A DNA stretch of 64,000 bases from Escherichia coli (GCF_046105845.1 NZ_CP151004.1), one strand, 5' to 3'. Shown: positions 4,045 to 44,098, counted from the stretch's first letter. Program-made: numbers and translations. The notes: generated by a model from the sequence alone, not told the origin.

Positions 4045-5217
4045 TTAGCCAGCGTTAGCTTTTACGATATCGTCGATCAGTTTATTGACAGGTGCCAGGC
4101 TGATTTCACGCGCGGTGCTTACCGCTACCGGTGTGGAACGTACTTTATTTGCCAGTACCTGACCGTCACGGTTAGTGGTATTGACGCTCACCAGCGTGGA
4201 TAAACCGATACGCAGCGGGTATTGCTCCAGCTGTTTTTGGTCCAGTTCGATACGAACAGGCAGACGCTGAACGACTTTGATCCAGTTACCAGTCGCATTT
4301 TGCGCCGGAAGCAGCGAGAACGCGCTACCTGTGCCCATATCCAGACCAACCACTTTACCGGTGTATTTCACATCATCGCCGTAAATATCGGTGGTGATGG
4401 TGACCGGCTGACCGATGCGCATATTGGCAATCTGCGTCTCTTTAAAGTTGGCATCCACCCACATATTGGTGGCTGGAACGACCGCCATTAGCGGCGTCGT
4501 TGGGCTAATTTGCGCCCCAGGCTGTACCGCGCGGCGGGAGACATAACCGGTCATCGGACTGACAATACGGGTACGCTCCAGCGCCAGCCAGGCGTTACGT
4601 ACTTCGGTGGCAGCCTGTTGCACGGCAGGCTGATCTTCCAGTTTAGTCCCCAGAATCATCGCCTGATTGGCATTGTATTGTTGAATAGCGACGTCCAGTT
4701 GTGCCTGGGCACTGGTAACGGCGTCGCGGGCGTGTTGCAGCTCTTCGCGACCAATCAGGTTGGCATTGCCCAGCGGCACACGGCGGTTGTAGTCGCTTTG
4801 TGCTTTCGCGAGGGCGATTTTTTGCACCTCAATATTCGCCTGCAACTGTTTGCTGTTAATCATCAGCTGGTGGGTTTGGCGAACGCTGGAAGCCAGTGCA
4901 GTTTTGGCTTTTTCAAACGCCTGGCGAGCATCTGTCGGGTCGAGAGTGACCAGAACATCGCCTTCTTTTACAAAATCGGTGTTATCGGCCCAGACTTTCG
5001 TCACGCTGCCAGACACCTGAGACATAATTTGAATCTGATTCCCTGCCACGTATGCGTCATCGGTTTCTTCGAAATGACGCAGTACCAAAAACCAATAAAT
5101 CCCTATCGCTACGGCAATAATTATAAAGAGCAAGGTGAGAAGGAGGAGCAGACGCTTACGTTTGCCGCTCTTCTTTACCGGTTGCTGCGGGGTTTGAGTC
5201 TCCGCATTTGCGCTCAT
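4045..5217 (-). CDS. emrA: Multidrug efflux membrane fusion protein EmrA
   Basis: ORF 4045-5229; MSANAETQTPQQPVKKSGKRKR… ; start at ATG 5217. Confidence 0.95.
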   Translation of the reverse strand: MSANAETQTPQQPVKKSGKRKRLLLLLTLLFIIIAVAIGIYWFLVLRHFEETDDAYVAGNQIQIMSQVSGSVTKVWADNTDFVKEGDVLVTLDPTDARQAFEKAKTALASSVRQTHQLMINSKQLQANIEVQKIALAKAQSDYNRRVPLGNANLIGREELQHARDAVTSAQAQLDVAIQQYNANQAMILGTKLEDQPAVQQAATEVRNAWLALERTRIVSPMTGYVSRRAVQPGAQISPTTPLMAVVPATNMWVDANFKETQIANMRIGQPVTITTDIYGDDVKYTGKVVGLDMGTGSAFSLLPAQNATGNWIKVVQRLPVRIELDQKQLEQYPLRIGLSTLVSVNTTNRDGQVLANKVRSTPVAVSTAREISLAPVNKLIDDIVKANAG

Positions 5218-5343
5218 ATTGTTCTCCACGATCTTCTTAACTCATCGGCTGAGCCGACCTGCTTGCCAAAAAGGCCAGCATGTTGCGATGCTGGCCAGTC
5301 ATTTTTTCTTTTATAAATCTGGATTTTTGAGCGAGATGACGCG

Positions 5344-5874
5344 TTAGCTCATCGCTTCGAGAACCACACCGTCTTGTTCCATCTGGTCGAGACGGGAGAG
5401 CAATTTGCGGGTGATTTGCTCGAGCTGATCTTTTTCTGTTGTGCTGAGCGCGGACCAGAGTTGATGCAGGCAGTTATGCTGCGGTGGTAAAACCTCGCGC
5501 AAAAACTCGTGACCTTTTTCCGTTAATTGCAGATGCAGGCAGCGGCGATCGTTATCGCTTTCACGACGTTCAATCCAACCGCGTTTTTCCAGTTCATCGG
5601 CAATACGCGTCGCGTTGGTACGGGATGATCCAAGAGCACAACTCAATTCAGAAGGCTGAATACTGTGGTTTTCCTGAGACTCCAGCGTAATCAACGCCAT
5701 AAACAACGTCTCGTTAATCCCCTGAGCCTTCAGCATTTTATTGCGGTTCTCCAGCAGCTTGCTTTGCATGTGCATGCAAAGACGGGTCAGAAGGATCTCC
5801 TGATAAGGAAAATCTTCGTGGCGGCTGGCGCGAAATTTTAGCATTTGTTCAATGGGCGTAAACGAACTATCCAT
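5344..5874 (-). CDS. mprA: MarR-family transcriptional repressor MprA/EmrR
   Basis: 176-aa ORF upstream of emrAB, MarR-like wHTH protein. Confidence 0.93.
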
Positions 5875-5964
5875 TTGGGTATGACCTCATTAATTTCAGC
5901 CGATATAGTAACGACAGTGACAAATAAAGTAAATGTATTGTTTTAGAAAAATGATTCTTGTGGG

Positions 5965-6300
5965 TTATATAATCGCCATCACTTTCCAGGCGAGCCCGTA
6001 GGCCAGCGCACTAAGCAGTGTTGGGATGATAATGCTGCGTGTTTTATAGAAACTGGCACCCAGTACCGCGAAGCCGACCAGCGTGGGCACGAAACGGCGT
6101 GTATCGTGCATCACTTCTGGTGCGGTAGAGACAACCAGCAGAGCGCATATCGAGGCGATGCCAATGGTGTCGAGCAATATGCCTATCGCGCCACGTTTGG
6201 TTGGGCGGGTATTACCCACACGCAGGCGCAGCGGCAAATAGCGGAAGCAATAATTCGCCGCGCCAACCAGTAACCCAAGCAGCAGAACCTCATAGCTCAT
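5965..6300 (-). CDS. ygaH: L-valine exporter subunit YgaH (AzlD-like)
   Basis: 111-aa hydrophobic ORF overlapping ygaZ stop. Confidence 0.9.
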
Positions 6301-7027
6301 CGGGCGCTCCTTGCCAGAATGCCTGGATTAACGCAGTGAGGCAGCCACAGACAATGCCTGCCAGAATGGCGACGGGAATAGAAAATAGCGTTACGCCTGC
6401 AAGGGCACCAACTAACGCTGCGGTAACGCAAAGAGATTGTTTGCGCTGGAAAGAGGCGAGCAGGAAACTCATAAAGAGTGCCGGAAGCATAAAACCTAAT
6501 GCTGCTTCAACGGCGGGATATCCTTGCAGCAAGCCGCTGCCGGAGAATGCCCCTATTACCGTACCAAATACCCACGATGACCATGAACTGAAGGCAATGC
6601 CGATCATCCAGTTCTCGCTCCAGCGGCGATTATTGCGTACCAGTTTTGCGGTTGCGGCGGCAAAAACCTCATCCGTCAGGCCAAATGCCCACAGGGCGGT
6701 TTTCGATTTTTGCAGACGCTGAATAATACGGCTACGCAGTGACGGGCCATACAAAACATGGCGAACATCCATTGCCATGACGGTCAGTGCAGCAACCCAC
6801 AAACTACTCCCGGCTGCCAGCATCGCGGTAATGACGAACTGGCTCGCGCCTGCATAAATGATGCAGGAGAAAAAAACGCTTTCGAGAGGAGAGAATCCCA
6901 GACGGGTCGCATTCAGACCGAACGCAAAGGCCACCGGAATATAACTAATAACAATCGGTAAACTGTCTTTGCATCCTTCCATGAAGGTCGCCGAACCAGG
7001 AGCAGGCTGTGGAGTAGGGCTTTCCAT
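6290..7027 (-). CDS. ygaZ: L-valine exporter subunit YgaZ (AzlC-like)
   Basis: 245-aa membrane ORF in conserved position. Confidence 0.9.
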
Positions 7028-7150
7028 AGAGTGTACGCTTAACGATTGTTAATATTATAAATAGACTGAATGAATATCTTAACCTTATCAGACTGATGGG
7101 CTTCTTAACACCCTTATAAGTGTAAAGCCACGAAAACGGTTGCTGATTGC

Positions 7151-8335
7151 TTAATTTGCGGCTTCCTGACGATGAAAACCTCGCCACCAGACCAGTAAGT
7201 TAACCAGGGCAATCGTCGCGCCAGCCAGACAAACGCCAGCCCAACCGCCATGTTGCCAGGCTGAGGCTGAAATTAGCGAACCGGCGGCACCGCCAATAAA
7301 GTAGCTGGTCATGTAACCTGCGGTCAGGCGATTACGCGCATCAGGGTGTATTCGATAAATTACCGTCTGGTTAGTGATATGCACGCCCTGCACGGTGAGA
7401 TCCAGCACCAGGATGCCGATAATCAGCGCCAGTACGGAAGTGTGACCAAACCAGATCGCCAGCCATGAAAGTAACAGCAGCAGCAGACCGAAAGTTGTGG
7501 TGTGGTGCGATTTACCCTTATCGGCAAAACCGCCCGCCGGACGAGCGCCCAACGCTCCGGCAGCTCCCGCAAGTCCAAACAGACCAATGACGCCATCGCT
7601 GTAATTAAAAGGTGGAGCGGCAAGCAAAAAGGCCATTGAGGTCCAGAGAATGCTGAAGTTGGCAAAGGTCAGGCAGCCCAGCAACGCGCGGGTGCGCAGA
7701 ATTTTATCGCTGATAAACATGCTGAAAACGGAACCCAACAACTGTGGGTAGTTGAGGTGGGTTTCTGATTTCATTTGTGGCAGACCACGCCATAATGCCA
7801 GCGCCATCAGTGCCATTAACACCGAGGCAACCCAAAAGACGGTGCGCCAGCCGCCGAGGTTTGCCAGCAACCCGGCAACGGTTCGTGCCAGCAAGATCCC
7901 CAACAGCAGCCCGCTCATAATGGTGCCGACCACTTTGCCGCGTTTGTCTGGTGAAGCCAGCGTCGCTGCCAGCGGAACCAGAATTTGTGCCACGACCGAG
8001 AATAAACCGGTTAATGCCGTACCGAGGATCATCATCGCCAGCGACTGACTGCTGGCGGTAATCAACATACCGCCCGCTGCCAGTAAGGTCATCGAGACAA
8101 TCAGGCGGCGGCGTTCAAACATATCACCGAGGGGAACAAGAAACAGCAGACCTGCGGCATAGCCCAACTGCGCGGCGGTAACAATAAAGCCCGCCGAACT
8201 GGCGGAAAGGGAAAAGTTACGCGCGATGGTGTCGAGCAATGGCTGGGCGTAATAGTTGCTGGCGACCGCCAGACCGGTGGCGATAGACATCAGTACGATC
8301 AGTGCCGGGCTAAGCTCATGATTAGGTTTAGTCAT
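7151..8335 (-). CDS. ygaY: MFS transporter YgaY (intact here)
   Basis: 394-aa 12-TM ORF; same locus is a split pseudogene in K-12 as far as I recall. Confidence 0.85.
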   Translation of the reverse strand: MTKPNHELSPALIVLMSIATGLAVASNYYAQPLLDTIARNFSLSASSAGFIVTAAQLGYAAGLLFLVPLGDMFERRRLIVSMTLLAAGGMLITASSQSLAMMILGTALTGLFSVVAQILVPLAATLASPDKRGKVVGTIMSGLLLGILLARTVAGLLANLGGWRTVFWVASVLMALMALALWRGLPQMKSETHLNYPQLLGSVFSMFISDKILRTRALLGCLTFANFSILWTSMAFLLAAPPFNYSDGVIGLFGLAGAAGALGARPAGGFADKGKSHHTTTFGLLLLLLSWLAIWFGHTSVLALIIGILVLDLTVQGVHITNQTVIYRIHPDARNRLTAGYMTSYFIGGAAGSLISASAWQHGGWAGVCLAGATIALVNLLVWWRGFHRQEAAN

Positions 8336-9539: not shown

Positions 9540-10604
9540 TTACTTAATGAATGGGCGGGTCAGCAGACCGACAGGGCCAGTGGTGTACCAGCGACGGTTG
9601 CCGCGACTGCGTGAGTCGCGCCCAACGGCCTGCGTCAGGCGGTCGAGGATAATGGCGAGGATCACAATCCCGACGCCGCCAACGGTGGCAAGCCCCATAT
9701 CCAGACGACCGATACCGCGAAGTACCATCTGACCCAGCCCGCCGACGGCAATCATCGAGGCGATGACCACCATAGAAAGAGCCAGCATCAGCGTCTGGTT
9801 AACGCCCGCCATAATGGTCGGCATCGCCAACGGTAACTGAACTTTGAACAGCATCTGGCGCGGGCTGGCACCGAATGAGCGCGAGGCTTCAATCAGATCC
9901 GCCGGAACCTGATTAATTCCCAGAATAGTCAGACGGATAATCGGCGGCAGAGCAAAGATGATCGTCACCACCACGCCCGGCACGTTACCAATACCAAACA
10001 GCATGACGATTGGCACCAGATAAACAAACGCTGGCGTGGTCTGCATGGCATCAAGCAGTGGACGAATAATTTTCGCCGCTCGTGGACTTCTCGCCAGCCA
10101 GATCCCCAACGGCAAACCGATGACGATACAGAACAGCAGGGCGGTTAACACCAGCGCCAGAGTAACCATTGCCTGTGACCAGGCACCGATTGCGCCGATG
10201 GCAATCAGCGAAACCAGCGTCGCCACGCCCATTCCGACACCGGAAATTTGCCAGGCGATGAGAGCGAAAACGATAATCGCCACCGGCGCAGGCATACCCA
10301 GCAGCAATTGCTGGAAACCGTTGAGGATGTAATCAACCGGAACGCGCACGCCCTGGAAGACGGGACGGAAATGGGTAACGACCCAGTCGATCCCTTCAGT
10401 GACCCAACTGTCGAGTGGGATCAGCGTTTTATGGAACGGATCGAGAATATTAAAATGCTCGACGTTTGGCGCAGGCGTACTGGTCAGCCAGTCAGCACCA
10501 CCGCCGTCAGTCGGTGCAGTCGCCGGTGTACCCCAGGCGTCTGCGGATTGTGCGGCACTGTCCGCCGCTGGCGTTGTATCCCACGGATTATTTTGATCAG
10601 CCAT
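9540..10604 (-). CDS. proW: Glycine betaine/proline ABC transporter permease ProW
   Basis: 354-aa membrane ORF. Confidence 0.95.
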
Positions 10605-11799
10605 TATTTACCCCCTCACGATCTAAAGCGCGCAGCAGCATTCCTTTCGAAATGATGCCGACATACTGTTGGTCCTCGTCGACCACGGGCACCGCACAGG
10701 GGGCCTGTCCGACATGAGAGAGCAACTCGCTAAGAGGCGTTTGTGCATCGACCGCTAACGGCGCATCAATCAGCGCCGCATCAAGACCTTGCTGCTGCGT
10801 TAACGCGGTTTTAAGCGAATCGATAGACACTGCGCCGACAAACTTATTACCGCGTTCGATGACGTAGCCATATTCGCGATCTTCATCCTGCAATAATTTC
10901 AGTGCCGAACGCGGGCCGAAGCCGGGGGTTTTACGAATTAAGCCGTTCGGTGTCCGGCGAGCAATATCTTTCGCACTGAATACCTGACTAATATCGACGC
11001 CACGGAAGAAGGTACGGACATAATCATTCGCCGGATTATTGAGAATTTCATCCGGTGTGCCGACCTGTACCACTTCACCATTTTGCATAATGGCAATTCG
11101 GTCGCCAATACGCATGGCTTCATCGAGATCGTGGGAAATAAAGACAATGGTGCGCTGATGTTTCGCCTGTAATTTTACCAGCTCATCCTGCATCTCGGTG
11201 CGAATTAATGGATCGAGTGCCGAGAAGGCTTCGTCCATTAATAATATATCCGGATTAATCGCTAACGCGCGGGCTAATCCCACACGTTGACGCATCCCGC
11301 CAGAGAGTTCATCCGGGTAGCTGTGGGCATAATTTTCCAGCCCGACCTGACGCAGTGCATCAAGGGCTTTTTCACGGCGTTCTTCGGCATTAATTCCGGC
11401 CAGTTCCATACCGAACGCAGTATTGTCCAGCACGGTCATATGCGGCATTAAGGCAAAGGACTGGAAGACCATCGCAATCTTTTTTCTGCGCACCTCACGG
11501 AGTTCGGCGTCGGATATTTTGGCAATATCCACACCATCAATCAGCACTTGCCCGCGGGTGGGTTCAATCAGGCGATTGAGAAGGCGTACCATTGTGGATT
11601 TACCCGAACCGGATAATCCCATGATGACAAATATCTCGCCTTCTTCAATGGCCAGACTGGCGTCTTTTACGCCAAGCGATAGCCCAGTTTTTTCCAGAAT
11701 TTGTTCTTTTGAAAGTCCTTGTTCGATATATTTGAAAGCTCGTTGTGGATGCTCACCAAATATTTTATAAAGATTTTTAATTTCTAATTTAATTGCCAT
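10597..11799 (-). CDS. proV: Glycine betaine/proline ABC transporter ATPase ProV
   Basis: 400-aa ORF with Walker [10 protein letters not shown] and C-terminal CBS domains. Confidence 0.96.
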
Positions 11800-15893: not shown

Positions 15894-16080
15894 GATTCGT
15901 ATTTCCGTTTAAAATGAAGATACGGCGCGATGATACGCGTCGGGTTGTCTCTCTGTTGATACAGAGATACTAGATGTAGTTGAAAAAAGATTCAACCACA
16001 CAATATATAGCAAATAGTGGTCGAAATTACCCTGGGTATGAGCGTGACGGGGTAGGGGGATTTTTGTGATTCACCAGGCA

Positions 16081-16110
16081 AAAAGAAACCCCGAAGCCAG
16101 GCTTCGGGGT
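16081..16110 (-). terminator. Rho-independent terminator after ygaM
   Basis: ccccgaagcc…ggcttcgggg hairpin followed by T-run on minus strand. Confidence 0.65.
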
Positions 16111-16140
16111 CAAAAACGCGTATTTATTATCATTATTGCA

Positions 16141-16470
16141 CTACGATTTGCGCATGCTTAACAGTGCGCCGATAAAAATACCAACCGCAGCTGCTGTACC
16201 CACGCTACACCAGGGTCTTTCACGAACAAAAGAATCCGCGCAGCCAACGGCATCGCGCGCGGCTTGCTGGACGCGAGTACGACCATGCATTCGCGCTCTG
16301 GTTTCTTTCAGTAGAGCCTGCGCTTTACTACGAGCGGCTTCGGCTTCCCCTTTGGCGTCGCTGCCCCAGGACTTCAATACAGATTCGAGGCTGTCAGCTA
16401 ATTGATTGACATCATTCTGGATATCCTGCACGCCATCATCGACGTCGTTGCGGTTCGGTCGGTTAAACAT
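16141..16470 (-). CDS. ygaM: ElaB/YqjD-family stress-induced protein YgaM
   Basis: ORF 16141-16482; MFNRPNRNDVDDGVQDIQNDV… C-terminal TM anchor; start ATG 16470. Confidence 0.9.
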   Translation of the reverse strand: MFNRPNRNDVDDGVQDIQNDVNQLADSLESVLKSWGSDAKGEAEAARSKAQALLKETRARMHGRTRVQQAARDAVGCADSFVRERPWCSVGTAAAVGIFIGALLSMRKS

Positions 16471-16621
16471 ATGATCCCCCATTAGAATTCGATGTAATTT
16501 TCAGTGTAGACCATAATTTTCTTAACTGAGGTTCATCGCGGCTTTATGGACTTTTCTGAAAGCGTTGTGAATGCGCAATCAGGTAAGGTAGGCCCGCGGT
16601 TGATAATAACGAGGATCAAAT

Positions 16622-16966
16622 ATGTATTTACGACCAGACGAGGTGGCGCGCGTACTTGAAAAAGTCGGTTTTACTGTCGATGTGGTAACCCAGAAAGCTT
16701 ATGGTTACCGCCGTGGGGAAAATTATGTCTATGTTAATCGCGAAGCGCGAATGGGACGTACCGCCCTGGTGATTCATCCAACATTAAAAGAACGTAGTTC
16801 AACACTGGCTGAACCCGCTTCCGATATTAAAACTTGCGATCATTACCAGCAATTTCCGCTCTATTTAGCGGGTGAACGTCATGAGCATTACGGTATCCCG
16901 CATGGCTTTAGTTCGCGTGTTGCGCTTGAACGTTATTTGAATGGTTTATTTGGCGAAGCCAGTTAA
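16622..16966 (+). CDS. ygaC: Uncharacterized protein YgaC
   Basis: 114-aa ORF in conserved position. Confidence 0.9.
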
Positions 16967-17002
16967 AGACGCGACTGGCGATGCCAGTCGCGAAAAGAAG
17001 GG

Positions 17003-17452
17003 TCAGGCTTTTACCTGCTGGTAACGGCTGACTTTAAACAGTCGGCGGCAATAATCGAGGAAGTAGCCATAAACCGCCCCCATCAACATCGAAACAACGA
17101 TGTTTGAACTGACCGCCGCCATAATCTGATGCCAGTCTGCGCCCACCACTAACAAGATCGCCACATACACCGGTGACTGGAACGTCACATACGCCAGGAT
17201 ATCCGCCAGATTTTTTATCCAGCCCGACGGGCTAACTTTGCGTGCTGCGCGCATAAACAGATCGCGGTACATACCGTATGGCCATGCAATTAAGATGTTC
17301 ACCGGAATCGCTACCAATCTGGAATAAAAAGACTGTTCGAAGCTCATTCCGGAGAGGAAAACTTCAATACACATGTTCACGACAGAACAGTAAACAACCA
17401 TCGCGAACGTATCTGCAACTGCATGACGCAAGCGTGACTGCGGTGAGAACAT
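17003..17452 (-). CDS. alaE: L-alanine exporter AlaE
   Basis: ORF 17003-17563; [24 protein letters not shown]…; start ATG at 17452. Confidence 0.92.
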
Positions 17453-18119
17453 GCTAATGCTCCTTAATAAAAGCGTAATGGGATGTGAATGGAGATGAAA
17501 GCAGTGGATCTCATTGCCATCTGCATTTTCGCATAGCGTATATCGCTGGCTATGACTAATCAATTAGTGAAAAATTTTTATTTAAACTGTTTTTGTAGAT
17601 AAAATATTCCGTAACGGCGCGTTTTTTGTACATTGTGGATTTTTACATGCCGATATGGTTTATTTTCAATTGAATCAATTAGATATGATCCTGCCTTTAA
17701 TTACACTAATGAAAGTTTGGGGGTGAGATAACGCTATAAGCGTAGAGAATTCGGTGTATGTCGTGACCGGGTCATTTTCAGCATTTTTTATGCCAGAAAA
17801 TGTACATTGACAGCAGAAAGCACCAGTGAGGGGTGTTTCCATTTATTCGGTTAAATTGCATTTTTATTCATTTTTGTTTTGTCAGGCTTGCGGAATTAGC
17901 GAGCAGAGAGCGCCGCTCTGCTCACAAATAACCTAAATTACTCATCAAAATGGCTAATATATAATCTTGAAATTATTCTGAGAGTTTCAGAAAATAACAG
18001 CTGAAATAATCTCGCGCAGGACTGTAAATAGATTAAATTTTGTGGAAATATAATAAGTGATCGCTTACACTACGCGACGAAATACTTTTTTGTTTTGGCG
18101 TTAAAAGGTTTTCTTTATT

Positions 18120-40299: not shown

Positions 40300-41253
40300 T
40301 TACCATATATCTATGGGTTTTGTTTTCTGCTCATCTAAACAAAATGCACAGATGTAAGCCCCCTTACTTCGGTTGTACTGAACCGTTTCTAAAGCAGAGT
40401 CAAGATGTTTACTATCAAAGTTCCAGCTTTTTTCCATAACAGAAACACATTTTCTGCAATAGAAACTTTCTTTTGAGTTAGTATCTCCTGAATCATTTTT
40501 AGTGTAGCCAAAGAATTTTTTTGCTGATTCCTTTGAACATGCGGAAATGGCTGCAGTGAACTCATAATGAGTTTGAAGCATAGCCCATACAATACCTGAA
40601 AATTCTTCATCCTCGTCTTCATCTAGTCCTATATTAATGCCGCCAGAGGAATGTATTGCTTTATATTTATACCTATGCCATATCCAGTGTGCTGATTCAG
40701 TATTTAGATAGTTGTGAGCACGTACAACTGATGTGAAAATTAGCTCTGGCATTATATCTGTTTTTTTATCAACCGTATGCATAAAACGATTTCTTAGAAT
40801 GCGCATACTATTAAACCAAGTAATAAAGTCATCAGGCAGTGATTTAGAGGCGAAAGTATTATATACTTTAATTAAATCTTGGGCGTCTAATGTGTGGAAG
40901 TCTGAAAATGAAATGTTACCTTCACTATCAGGTTTAGGTGTATTGCGAGTTGCATTCGTGATAAGTAGATAAGGTGATATTTCGACGATAAGTCCTTTTA
41001 GTCTGAATTCAATGGATTGAAGTATCAAATTAAAAGATGTAATCAATTTTGGTCTAGCAAATAACCAATAATGCTCTAAATTTTTAATATCTGATTCTGT
41101 ATAGAATTTAGACGTTTTACAATAACTATTCCAAAGGTTTATATCTCTGTAATCATAAGCTAAATCGGCAATTTTTTCCCAAGCCTCATTTACCATGTGG
41201 TCAGCCATTGTATAAAAATCAGTCTTTGTTGGAATGTCAGTTATCATTATCAA
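40300..41253 (-). CDS. Hypothetical protein with HEPN-like Rx4H motif and C-terminal CxxC…CxxC zinc ribbon (candidate defence/Abi ribonuclease)
   Basis: 317-aa AT-rich ORF; motif RILRNRFMH (R154-x4-H159); C266RKC269 … C302AFC305. Confidence 0.65.
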   Translation of the reverse strand: MIMITDIPTKTDFYTMADHMVNEAWEKIADLAYDYRDINLWNSYCKTSKFYTESDIKNLEHYWLFARPKLITSFNLILQSIEFRLKGLIVEISPYLLITNATRNTPKPDSEGNISFSDFHTLDAQDLIKVYNTFASKSLPDDFITWFNSMRILRNRFMHTVDKKTDIMPELIFTSVVRAHNYLNTESAHWIWHRYKYKAIHSSGGINIGLDEDEDEEFSGIVWAMLQTHYEFTAAISACSKESAKKFFGYTKNDSGDTNSKESFYCRKCVSVMEKSWNFDSKHLDSALETVQYNRSKGAYICAFCLDEQKTKPIDIW

Positions 41254-41484
41254 TCTACCTTTGGGTCTTTATTGTTGTCTATCAAGATATAATATTCAGG
41301 CTGGAGTGGCTAATGTTGATCTACTTATTTTCTCCCGGTAAGTCAGTTTATCGCGATATAAGCCGCATTTGATTTTGGCGACTATGGTCGTGTTAGGTAT
41401 GTATCTGGCGTGTTACTGCGCCAGATTAAATATAAACCAATAATATTAAAGGGTGTTACTCTCTTGACAGATTTAGGGAACAAA

Positions 41485-41679
41485 TCACTCGTCAGCTGAC
41501 TCCCAAGTATCTTTCAGAGTTTCCTGAACAAAAGTTTTAGCTGAATCTTTATCGGCGGTGCGCCTAACAGAAAAACCATCGTTGCTGGTGGCTTTTACGA
41601 TCATCTCCACATCGTCATAATGCTCGCCAATGTATTGGGTTAATTCTTCCTTTAATGCGTCTACAGCGCCGTTTGGCAT
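41485..41679 (-). CDS. Small acidic hypothetical protein (64 aa)
   Basis: ORF-track ORF in AT-rich island, flanked by more than 200 bp non-coding on both sides; no recognisable motif. Confidence 0.45.
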
Positions 41680-42023: not shown

Positions 42024-42392
42024 TTAAATATTTAGCAGATCCTCTACAATATCATTAAACCCAGATGCCTGTTTAGATACAGAATTGAATAAGTCTCTAA
42101 GTGCTTGTGTTTGCTCAAAAGTTTCCCAAAGTGTTTTATAACTTGGCGTTACAATTGCTAATACTAAGCCTTCCGCCCATGACCATTCATGTTCATCAAA
42201 ATAGTAGCGATATTTTCTGCTGTATATAACAAAATCCTTTTCCTTATATTTAGCATGAAACACAACTTGAATTATATCCTGTGTACCATTAACAAGGTTT
42301 TCAGGCGCATCAATTGCCATCCAATTTATCATTTTTTGGACAGTTAACTTATTTAATGAAACAATTAGCTTTGTGGTTTTATCGTTATGCAT
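42024..42392 (-). CDS. Hypothetical protein (122 aa), second gene of two-gene operon
   Basis: AT-rich ORF starting 2 nt after the stop of ORF 42395-42856. Confidence 0.6.
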   Translation of the reverse strand: MHNDKTTKLIVSLNKLTVQKMINWMAIDAPENLVNGTQDIIQVVFHAKYKEKDFVIYSRKYRYYFDEHEWSWAEGLVLAIVTPSYKTLWETFEQTQALRDLFNSVSKQASGFNDIVEDLLNI

Positions 42393-42394
42393 AA

Positions 42395-42856
42395 TTAGTC
42401 CAGTTGCATATCTTTCACAATTTCGTTAACTCTTGAGTTGAGTATACTCAACTTCTCATAGAGCTTCCAGGCTTGGTCTTGGTCATTGATATTAATGGAG
42501 ATTTCTTTTCTTCGAAAGATTCCTTTGGGTTTGACTTCATCAAAAAATATATCAATCTTTGAGCGTTCCTTGGTTGGAAGCCTGCTGAAAAGGCTTTCAG
42601 TTAGCACTGCACACTCAGTAAACTCCTTACGTATAAATTCTTTCTGAGTAACCCAGTCTCCAATAGCATCATTTATCAATGAGGCTTTTTTTTGAAGATT
42701 GCTATGGATTTCAGGTATTCGAACCTTGTTTCTGAGAGTGGCCTTCAATGAACGCGTCGTAAAAAAAAGTTTTACAGTTACAACAAAACCGACAATACCC
42801 GCTAGGGAGGATATGTCAGTTACCGTCTGTGATAGGGGCCAAGTCAGGATATCCAT
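42395..42856 (-). CDS. Hypothetical membrane-anchored protein (153 aa, one predicted N-terminal TM helix)
   Basis: Hydrophobic stretch SSLAGIVGFVVTVKLFFT near N-terminus; AT-rich; immediately downstream of ssrA terminator. Confidence 0.6.
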   Translation of the reverse strand: MDILTWPLSQTVTDISSLAGIVGFVVTVKLFFTTRSLKATLRNKVRIPEIHSNLQKKASLINDAIGDWVTQKEFIRKEFTECAVLTESLFSRLPTKERSKIDIFFDEVKPKGIFRRKEISININDQDQAWKLYEKLSILNSRVNEIVKDMQLD

Positions 42857-43037: not shown

Positions 43038-43400
43038 TTGGTGGAGCTGGCGGGAGTTGAACCCGCGTCCGAAATTCCTACGTCCTCGGTACTACATGCT
43101 TAGTCAGTCTTTACATTCGCTTGCCAGCTGCGGACGGACACGCCACTAACAAACTAGCCTGATTAAGTTTTAACGCTTCAACCCCAGGCAGGGCTTCCAC
43201 GCGATCTCTTTTGGGTTTGACCTCTCTTGATCCCCGTCCTAAGAGCGGAGGCTAGGGAGAGAGGGCTCTAAGCAGGTTATTAAGCTGCTAAAGCGTAGTT
43301 TTCGTCGTTTGCGACTATTTTTTGCGGCTTTTTACGAGGCCAACCGCCCCTCGGCATGCACCTTGGGTTTCGCAAATCCCGTCGAATCCAGAATCAGCCC
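43038..43400 (-). ncRNA. ssrA: tmRNA (SsrA)
   Basis: Reverse complement reads GGGGCTGATTCTGGATTCGACGGGATTTGCGAAACCC…GGTTCAACTCCCGCCAGCTCCACCA, including tag-peptide coding region; boundaries within about 1 nt. Confidence 0.97.
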
Positions 43401-43615
43401 CAATGTGTAACGGTAAGTATACCAGATTCATGAGTGCCATGACCAGCCTCAATGGCGTTATCGTTAAAGATTTAGCACCCATGTAGCCTGATTTTTATTC
43501 GATTAAGCAATGGGATGGCAACATTTTCGTCGGATGTGATAGCCAATAAGATGTGCATTCGCGCCGCCGGAGAGGGAGGCGCGGTGAGGAACTGGTCAAT
43601 AATTGGAGTGCAGGT

Positions 43616-44098
43616 TTAACGGTGGGCGTTTTTCATGATACGCGCTTTATCCACCTGCCATTCGCGCTCTTTGATATCTGAACGTTTATCGTGCTGTTTC
43701 TTACCTTTGGCGACGCCGATTTTCACTTTGCACCAGGCATTTTTCCAGTACAGGGAGAGCGCCACTACGGTATAGCCTTCTCGATTGACGCGACCGTACA
43801 ATGAGTCCAGTTCGCGCTGGTTGAGAAGTAACTTGCGGGTACGGGTAGGATCGCACACCACATGCGTGGAGGCCACGGCCATTGGCGTGATGTTAGCGCC
43901 AAACAGAAATGCCTCTCCGTCACGCAGAAGGACGTAGCTGTCGCTGATATTGGCTTTTCCTGCGCGCAGGGATTTAACCTCCCAGCCTTGCAGGGCAAGT
44001 CCCGCTTCGAACTCTTCTTCGATAAAGTATTCGTGACGGGCGCGCTTGTTAAGCGCGATGGTCGCTGAACCAGGTTTATGTGCTTTTTTCTTCGTCAT
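43616..44098 (-). CDS. smpB: SsrA-binding protein SmpB
   Basis: 160-aa [51 protein letters not shown]…. Confidence 0.97.

Follow-up and report, generated by a model that had tools for sequence, protein, structure and literature searches.

The 64,000-nucleotide stretch of the Escherichia coli chromosome NZ_CP151004.1 (assembly GCF_046105845.1) analyzed here, called the window below, carries on its minus strand a gene annotated as coding for a hypothetical protein (positions 40300..41247; RefSeq WP_000627053.1). This target gene comprises 315 codons and a stop, and its product is a predicted HEPN ribonuclease (RNase) with a C-terminal cysteine module. An earlier note, made from the sequence alone, had described an open reading frame (ORF) of 317 amino acids (aa) at 40300-41253. 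An ORF of 317 codons is present on the minus strand when counted from a TTG at 41253, but translation almost certainly starts at the ATG at 41247, because the homologues all open with MIxDIP, an AAGGT Shine-Dalgarno sequence lies 9 nt 5′ of this ATG, and the RefSeq start is identical. The ORF was thus correctly located, whereas its start had to be moved by two residues. Numbered from the Met at 41247, as is done throughout this text, the residues formerly called R154 and H159 become R152 and H157, and the cysteines of the module are C264, C267, C300 and C303. In the earlier numbering, RNRFMH (154-159), CRKC (266-269) and CAFC (302-305) lie exactly where they had been placed. The GC content of the gene is 33.8%, versus 48.9% for the whole window.

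The predicted N-terminal HEPN domain covers residues 1 to ~200 (40648..41247, on the minus strand like the other parts of the gene). Within it, the EFRLK segment of helix 2 (40996..41010) holds E80 and K84, which stand out by conservation and pair with E56 and K60 of DS-38, an anti-phage protein discussed below. The sequence RILRNRFMH (40777..40803) is the predicted catalytic R-x4-H motif, located at the C-terminal end of helix 3 and identified by conservation, by the structural model and by alignment with DS-38. The predicted zinc-binding module is a Cys4 site of the form CRKC-x32-CAFC (C264, C267, C300 and C303; 40339..40458). An AT-rich intergenic region of 237 bp (41248..41484, minus strand) lies upstream of the gene and is presumed to contain its own promoter; a scan for consensus promoters upstream of the gene returned no more sites than were found in shuffled sequences.

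A match to the Rx4-6H signature is at chance level when taken alone. At least one such match occurred in 66% of shuffles of the target protein (mean, 1.0 per shuffle), and the protein itself has another, RYKYKAIH, in which the His lacks conservation. The motif is significant because its residues are conserved across homologues, not because of the match as such. Counted over 244 aligned family members, R152, N153 and H157 are conserved in all 244 and R149 in 243, while K84 is found in 241 and E80 in 238, with Asp replacing the latter in 5 more. C264 and C267 are conserved in 242 of the 244 sequences and C300 and C303 in 237. The arginine, the histidine and the Cys quartet, whose conservation the earlier note had proposed as a check, are thus invariant or nearly so. 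Two CxxC pairs arose in only 0.15% of shuffles of the target protein, which has just six Cys residues. The two parts of the protein differ in their degree of conservation, with a mean top-residue frequency of 0.47 in the first 200 residues versus 0.29 in the last 115, and in 186 of the 244 members the first site is followed by one or two additional CxxC pairs. The Cys4 module belongs to this less conserved C-terminal third and is a candidate sensor or nucleic-acid-binding part.

The family is large and widespread. A word-indexed search identified 225 homologues of the target protein, and an exhaustive search with a cutoff of E ≤ 1e-3 yielded 504 cluster representatives (clustering at 50% identity). 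Nearly all members are full length, at 280 to 340 aa. They are found in Gamma-, Alpha- and Betaproteobacteria, Desulfobacterota, Cyanobacteria, Planctomycetota and Bacteroidota, in hosts that include Enterobacterales, Acinetobacter, Pseudomonas, Vibrio, Sphingomonas and Agrobacterium, as well as Janthinobacterium, Electrothrix, Leptolyngbya, Microcystis, Pirellula and Hymenobacter. Homologues of Salmonella and Proteus show 76 to 78% identity to the target protein.

An AlphaFold2 model of the target protein was built from a 28-sequence alignment, with a predicted local distance difference test score of 86.3 and a predicted template-modeling (TM) score of 0.85. It places helix 1 at residues 8 to 45, helix 2 at 57 to 90, helix 3 at 139 to 157 and helix 4 at 167 to 181, and the 48-residue insert between helices 2 and 3 (91 to 138) contains invariant SPYLL and DAQDL sequences. 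In HEPN domains, the Rx4-6H motif ends helix 3, helix 2 carries a conserved acidic residue, and inserts between helices 2 and 3 are usual (Anantharaman et al. 2013, PMC3710099). The model agrees with all three rules, as RNRFMH ends the helix at 139 to 157, E80 and K84 lie in the helix at 57 to 90, and the insert occupies residues 91 to 138. The structure prediction that the earlier note had called for thus returned the up-down, four-helix arrangement of HEPN domains, in which the motif closes helix 3. A Foldseek search of the AFDB50 database recovered the full-length family with TM scores of 0.65 to 0.94, and the automatic UniProt names of these matches include Swt1-, Apea-, AbiU2-, DZIP3-like and RiboL-PSP HEPN.

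The C-terminal part of the model has strands near the Cys4 site, at residues 289 to 292 and 297 to 300. The target protein thus has the conserved, paired CxxC knuckles with short, beta-rich spacing that are expected of a zinc ribbon. The first Cys knuckle runs into a modeled helix at residues 265 to 271, and because of this the Cys4 arrangement may be treble-clef-like instead of a classic ribbon. The label "zinc ribbon" given to it earlier is reasonable, though provisional as to the fold class of this single Cys4 site.

The affinities of the HEPN domain became apparent when members of the family were considered singly. When 126 diverse members were scanned against Pfam one by one, the commonest sub-threshold matches were to HEPN_Swt1 (8 members), RiboL-PSP-HEPN (6) and Apea (2), besides assorted zinc ribbons. 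The eight HEPN_Swt1 matches were at E ≤ 0.1, with one of them at E ≤ 0.001 (best E, 1.9e-4). Members with extra ribbons had weak Pfam matches to DZR_2, A2L_zn_ribbon and Zn_ribbon_5/15. The family thus resembles the Swt1-like/Abi2 clade through the sub-threshold HEPN_Swt1 and RiboL-PSP-HEPN matches of its members, but differs from it in that the target protein itself does not match PF18731 even at E ≤ 10. We regard this as an affinity with the Swt1-like HEPN family and not as membership in it. The architectures listed in the 2013 survey (PMC3710099) include one, Npun_R5629, in which a bacterial HEPN domain of the Swt1-like type is joined to a zinc ribbon. Searches of the target protein for defense models in PADLOC returned nothing at E ≤ 1, and its sole PHROG match, to a "tail tube" family at E 0.13, is not credible. 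We conclude that a Swt1/Abi2-like HEPN domain that lies outside every current model makes up the N-terminal two thirds of the protein, and we consider the assignment of the target protein as a HEPN RNase highly probable.

A link to a protein with demonstrated activity was provided by profile-profile comparison. DS-38, also called HEP2 (WP_001313577.1; 366 aa), is a single-gene anti-phage system of E. coli that is reported in the 2026 DefensePredictor study (PMC13092281) to lower plaquing of Bas19 by 4.2 logs and that of Bas25 by 5.7 logs. The study describes an N-terminal HEPN domain, assigned to PF05168 by HHpred at residues 22 to 153, and a C-terminal zinc-finger region at 206 to 364. Alignment with hhalign of a 126-sequence profile of the target family with a 20-sequence profile of DS-38 gave a probability of 96.3% (E, 1.5e-9) over 209 columns. 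The HEPN halves alone still gave 94.3% (E, 9.7e-8) with the catalytic residues in register, the target/DS-38 pairs being E80/E56, K84/K60, R149/R120, R152/R123, N153/N124 and H157/H128, and a negative control in which the HEPN domain was aligned with the zinc region gave 0.1%. DS-38 was absent from the HMMER matches of the target protein. As judged from these profiles, the HEPN domain of the target family is remotely related to that of DS-38, and the order of parts agrees; the two represent distinct families, because profile-profile comparison links them while BLASTP and HMMER do not.

The two proteins have much of their layout in common. Both are products of single genes and join an N-terminal HEPN domain through a helical linker to a C-terminal Cys-rich zinc module, both have E-x3-K in helix 2, an insert between helices 2 and 3 and R-x2-RN-x3-H in helix 3, and both are encoded by accessory genes of Enterobacterales. 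They differ at the C terminus, where DS-38 has about seven CxxC pairs spread over 160 residues (some 14 invariant Cys, at 206 to 364) and the target protein one Cys4 site. The long, multi-zinc-finger C terminus of the DS-38 type is missing from the target protein, which has this single site only. The homologues of DS-38 are annotated as "hsdR" and come from Enterobacterales only, among the matches listed, whereas the target family spans many phyla. Defense has been demonstrated for DS-38, against Bas19 and Bas25; for the target family it is predicted.

RAZR (PD-T7-4) offers a second precedent. This single-protein abortive-infection RNase has an N-terminal Cys4 zinc finger and a C-terminal HEPN domain of the DUF4145 type; it is not toxic alone and is activated by assembly around phage ring proteins, and its zinc-finger domain is both its most variable part and the determinant of trigger specificity (PMC13017515). 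Like RAZR, the target protein joins a Cys4 zinc-ribbon-like domain and a divergent HEPN domain in one polypeptide, and its zinc-bearing C terminus is likewise its least conserved part. In contrast, the domain order of RAZR is inverted, with the zinc finger first and HEPN last, the spacing of its motif is Rx7H (R146...H154) and not R-x4-H, and a 24-subunit assembly around phage ring proteins is described for RAZR only. The target protein is not a RAZR, because its domain order is the opposite and it has no match to the PADLOC PD-T7-4 model. Nor does it match DUF4145, to which 1 of 28 members had a weak match (E, 0.009) and which was not among the families listed for the 126 diverse members.

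HepS and Tha are closer in genetic setting. HepS (STM14_3211) of the Salmonella prophage Gifsy-1 is a solo HEPN protein of fewer than 250 aa that, once activated by tail-tip proteins of siphoviruses, cleaves tRNA in the anticodon loop; its gene sits between replication and antirepressor genes (PMC13043305). Tha is a solo HEPN protein of Staphylococcus aureus prophages that is reported to have no partner or antitoxin (PMC11087260). Both resemble the target protein as solo HEPN proteins of lambdoid or temperate prophages, with an RX4-6H motif and no partner or antitoxin, and both are inactive by default and triggered by structural proteins of incoming phages, with tRNA cleavage in the case of HepS. 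HepS stands apart from the target protein, since it has fewer than 250 aa, no extra domain and no zinc module. At 315 aa and with a conserved Cys4 module, the target protein was therefore not assigned to the HepS-like solo HEPN proteins. The toxins of HEPN-MNT pairs (SO_3166, PDB 5yep; 7ae2; 8xdj) are minimal HEPN proteins of ~130 aa that are always paired with an MNT antitoxin gene, unlike the target protein with its 315 aa, its far longer helices 1 and 2, its zinc module and its lack of an MNT neighbor. Affiliation with HEPN-MNT or another two-gene system was rejected, as no ORF was common to nine neighborhoods of homologues and no NTP_transf family member lay beside any copy.

The target gene belongs to a low-GC block to the left of ssrA (36.5% GC versus 48.9% for the window). 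The genes for SmpB (smpB; 43616-44098) and transfer-messenger RNA (ssrA, or tmRNA; 43039-43401) are both on the minus strand, and the order leftward from ssrA is a 153-aa ORF (42395-42856), a 122-aa ORF (42024-42392), a truncated DinI-like gene (41485-41679), the target gene, the tail-fiber assembly gene tfa and a tail-fiber gene fragment. The first three of these are on the minus strand. The DinI-like gene has 64 codons, matching residues 13 to 76 of the 81-residue DinI model. The tfa gene is on the plus strand (39603-40187) and convergent to the target gene, and the fragment consists of the last 221 codons of a tail-fiber gene cut by an IS3 element. On gene order, we read the window as containing what is left of a lambdoid prophage integrated at ssrA, namely, its cargo end, because the same cassette borders the attachment site in an intact phage and recurs in a decayed remnant. 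The cassette is present in 12 of 5,426 complete E. coli genomes. In NZ_CP148393.1, a circular lambdoid phage of 44.6 kb that is still intact, it is enclosed by tfa and the attachment site, and E. coli HS has the remnant, so that the target gene is found between tfa and ssrA in two remnants, that of the window and that of HS. The tail-fiber gene is cut by IS1 in HS and by IS3 in the window, and the prophage therefore decayed independently in the two lineages.

Several observations concern the neighbors of the target gene. RefSeq marks the DinI-like gene as frameshifted in related genomes. The 122- and 153-aa ORFs (42024-42856) are adjacent, nearly abutting and of low GC content, and the 153-aa product has a hydrophobic N-terminal segment; neither has a credible match in Pfam, NCBIfam, PADLOC or PHROG, the 122-aa product giving a faint BrxA/DUF4130 match (E, ~0.05-0.07). 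Both accompany the phage in the ssrA copies and are absent from a copy at tRNA-Pro, and they may form a separate two-gene cargo module. NZ_CP148393.1 was deposited as a "plasmid," and a gene for a ParA-family protein adjoins its integrase gene (16010-17932); this relative may be maintained as a phage-plasmid, or its excised form may have been sequenced. The ssrA prophage slot of CFT073 contains other cargo (4209-7475), namely, a Pin-type recombinase gene, ydfK, a ynaM-like gene and the gene for the 306-aa protein WP_001072749.1, which adjoins ssrA. Both sides of the DinI-like gene are therefore variable cargo sites.

In searches for RNA families and tandem repeats around the target gene, we found just tmRNA, an "IS009" match within tfa and one trivial 8-bp repeat. 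The "IS009" match (Rfam RF02111; 39946-40144, plus strand; 222.6 bits; E, 1.4e-55) lies wholly within the 3′ part of tfa and looks like a conserved tfa coding segment catalogued as a small-RNA candidate, not an independent RNA gene. Farther to the left (33806-39603), a repeat-rich autotransporter-type ORF of 1,337 codons, presumably at the position of ypjA of K-12, runs into an IS3-family element (orfA/orfB, 37789-39002, minus strand), the one that also cuts the tail-fiber gene. A second low-GC stretch (27000-33800; 34 to 41% GC) surrounds a tRNA gene with a CAT anticodon (30778-30853) and contains ORFs of 750 and 472 aa. ARAGORN calls this tRNA Met, and the RefSeq equivalent in strain HS is tRNA-Ile.

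Beyond this locus, the target gene is an accessory and mobile gene. It is present in 14 of the 5,426 complete E. coli genomes, and three more have a diverged fragment. The tRNA-Pro copy, in another E. coli strain, is accompanied by tfa and a DinI-like gene and lacks the 122- and 153-aa genes. Among plasmids, 19 carry homologues, and 13 of these are conjugative; homologues also occur on 10 IMG/VR contigs, in most cases at the end of the contig. Known defense genes are close to several of them: Gabija genes in Pseudomonas, a type IIG restriction-modification gene and HicAB in Leptolyngbya, and SIR2, an M78/DUF4411 pair, a UvrD helicase and GmrSD in Vibrio. Other homologues are associated with mobile elements, lying among prophage early genes in Acinetobacter, directly beside a prophage integrase gene in Proteus and on three viral contigs, in a P4-like element in Pectobacterium, next to a DUF2971 protein on pKpQIL-D2 and, elsewhere, in small integrase-flanked islands. 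None of the nine neighborhoods compared shared an ORF of at least 35 aa within 2.5 kb, and the target gene travels alone, without a conserved partner. It has in common with anti-phage genes an accessory, mobile distribution in defense islands and as prophage cargo, as would be anticipated for a mobile defense determinant that consists of a single gene. In one metagenomic context (10076-11540), the small island of a homologue abuts a gene for the RNA ligase RtcB, which may be a coincidence or a functional linkage. RtcB mends RNA ends of the type left by metal-independent RNases.

The idea put forward in the earlier note, that of an abortive-infection effector, fits the solitary, mobile, defense-island and prophage-end contexts of the gene. 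Our best reading is that the target protein would be a trigger-activated abortive-infection HEPN RNase, encoded by a cargo gene (a "moron") that occupies the right end of a lambdoid prophage, and for this defense scenario as a whole we estimate a probability of roughly 0.6. The RNase activity, zinc binding, trigger dependence and defense function of the target protein are all inferred, the mechanism by analogy with RAZR, HepS and Tha. The putative active site would consist of R152, N153 and H157, where helix 3 ends, and E80 and K84, in helix 2, would be close by. The protein would be present in the lysogen and inactive by itself, which would explain why an antitoxin gene is missing. Upon infection by a second phage, a phage protein would be recognized, probably through the variable zinc-containing C-terminal region, as in RAZR. 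Recognition would drive or rearrange oligomerization, so that two HEPN motifs could make a composite active site, which is a general feature of HEPN enzymes (PMC13017515, PMC13043305). The activated enzyme would then cleave cellular RNA, either tRNA or mRNA, halt translation and abort the infection.

A number of results weigh against this reading. Neither Pfam, NCBIfam, PADLOC nor PHROG has a model that the target protein matches credibly, a sequence-profile search of the PDB gave just two spurious matches, and Foldseek found no significant match to the model in the PDB. The connection with DS-38 needs a deep profile, as its probability was 39% with a 28-sequence alignment; BLASTP of the target protein against DS-38 detected no similarity (E, 0.15), and the C-terminal halves aligned by themselves reached an unconvincing 10%. 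No homologue occurs in 50,697 deposited phage genomes. The association with defense islands amounts to about a dozen examples and not an enrichment statistic, and in one case, Electrothrix, the homologue lies among housekeeping genes.

Some of these negatives would also be expected if the protein were not a HEPN protein at all. The high frequency of the motif in shuffled sequences, the lack of a significant PDB match and the lack of a Pfam match of the target protein itself could all be accommodated by this explanation. It is nevertheless very improbable in our view, as the motif residues are invariant, the positions of the motif, the acidic residue and the insert agree with the HEPN rule, the sub-threshold Pfam matches of the members converge on HEPN families, and the profile match to the HEPN half of DS-38, itself PF05168 by HHpred, reaches 94%. 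A HEPN-like domain might still be catalytically silent and use its motif for binding, as a nucleotide or RNA sensor or a regulator comparable to MtlR or the HEPN domain of sacsin. In HEPN families that have no catalytic role, however, either the R or the H has usually been lost, whereas here R152, N153 and H157 are retained in every aligned member, along with E80 and K84, and the same residues are conserved in the defense-active DS-38 family, so that we consider a silent binder quite improbable.

If the protein is an active HEPN RNase, it might serve a purpose other than defense. It could be an addiction toxin of the toxin-antitoxin type that stabilizes the prophage or a plasmid and is curbed by an unrecognized small protein or RNA antitoxin, a possibility to which the best structural matches, the HEPN toxins of HEPN-MNT pairs, and the homologues on conjugative plasmids beside VapBC and partition genes lend some credit. 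The neighborhoods speak differently: the nine compared have no ORF of at least 35 aa in common, antitoxin families, MNT included, adjoin none of the copies, neither tandem repeats nor an Rfam RNA antitoxin were found near the target gene, and the gene survives alone in decayed prophage remnants. An addiction role thus appears unlikely. The same grade applies to an RNase that acts in the phage life cycle or in counter-defense, by shutting off host RNA, processing RNA or destroying host defense RNAs during lytic growth. Such a role would suit a phage-borne gene that adjoins the late genes for the tail fiber and tfa in an intact lambdoid phage, and HEPN RNases are able to process specific RNAs (PMC3710099). 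Against it, the target gene is convergent to the late operon and located in the attachment-site-proximal cargo zone, it is rare among related prophages (found, as stated above, in 14 genomes, with other cargo in the CFT073 slot), its homologues are absent from the deposited phage genomes, and they are common in nonphage islands and on plasmids.

The reading of the target protein as a trigger-activated abortive-infection RNase can be widened to the family, although we put this extension forward tentatively, at somewhat less than even odds. Its 500 or more clusters (at 50% identity), which come from several bacterial phyla, would then be single-gene immune systems in which a HEPN RNase is switched on when a variable zinc module recognizes a phage protein, with the target protein as the founding E. 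coli example. Together with DS-38 and with RAZR, whose HEPN domain is of a different clade, the family would show the repeated origin or diversification of a design that combines HEPN and a zinc finger, and such cargo would continue to protect the host after decay of the prophage.

This would not be a new kind of biology, as solo HEPN abortive-infection proteins of prophages are already well established. From its sequence, the target protein most likely represents a new family within an established kind, the single-protein HEPN abortive-infection RNases with a zinc-finger module, and is a credible if unsurprising anti-phage candidate. The remnants in E. coli HS and in the window indicate that the cargo zone of lambdoid prophages between tfa and the attachment site keeps candidate defense genes even when the prophage has been truncated by insertion sequences. 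If the proposal is correct, about 500 clusters of "hypothetical proteins" would become recognizable as a defense family, one that PADLOC 2.0, Pfam and NCBIfam do not cover. This family would also provide a third independent example of HEPN combined with a zinc finger, after RAZR and DS-38, and would allow the ways in which zinc modules read their triggers to be compared.

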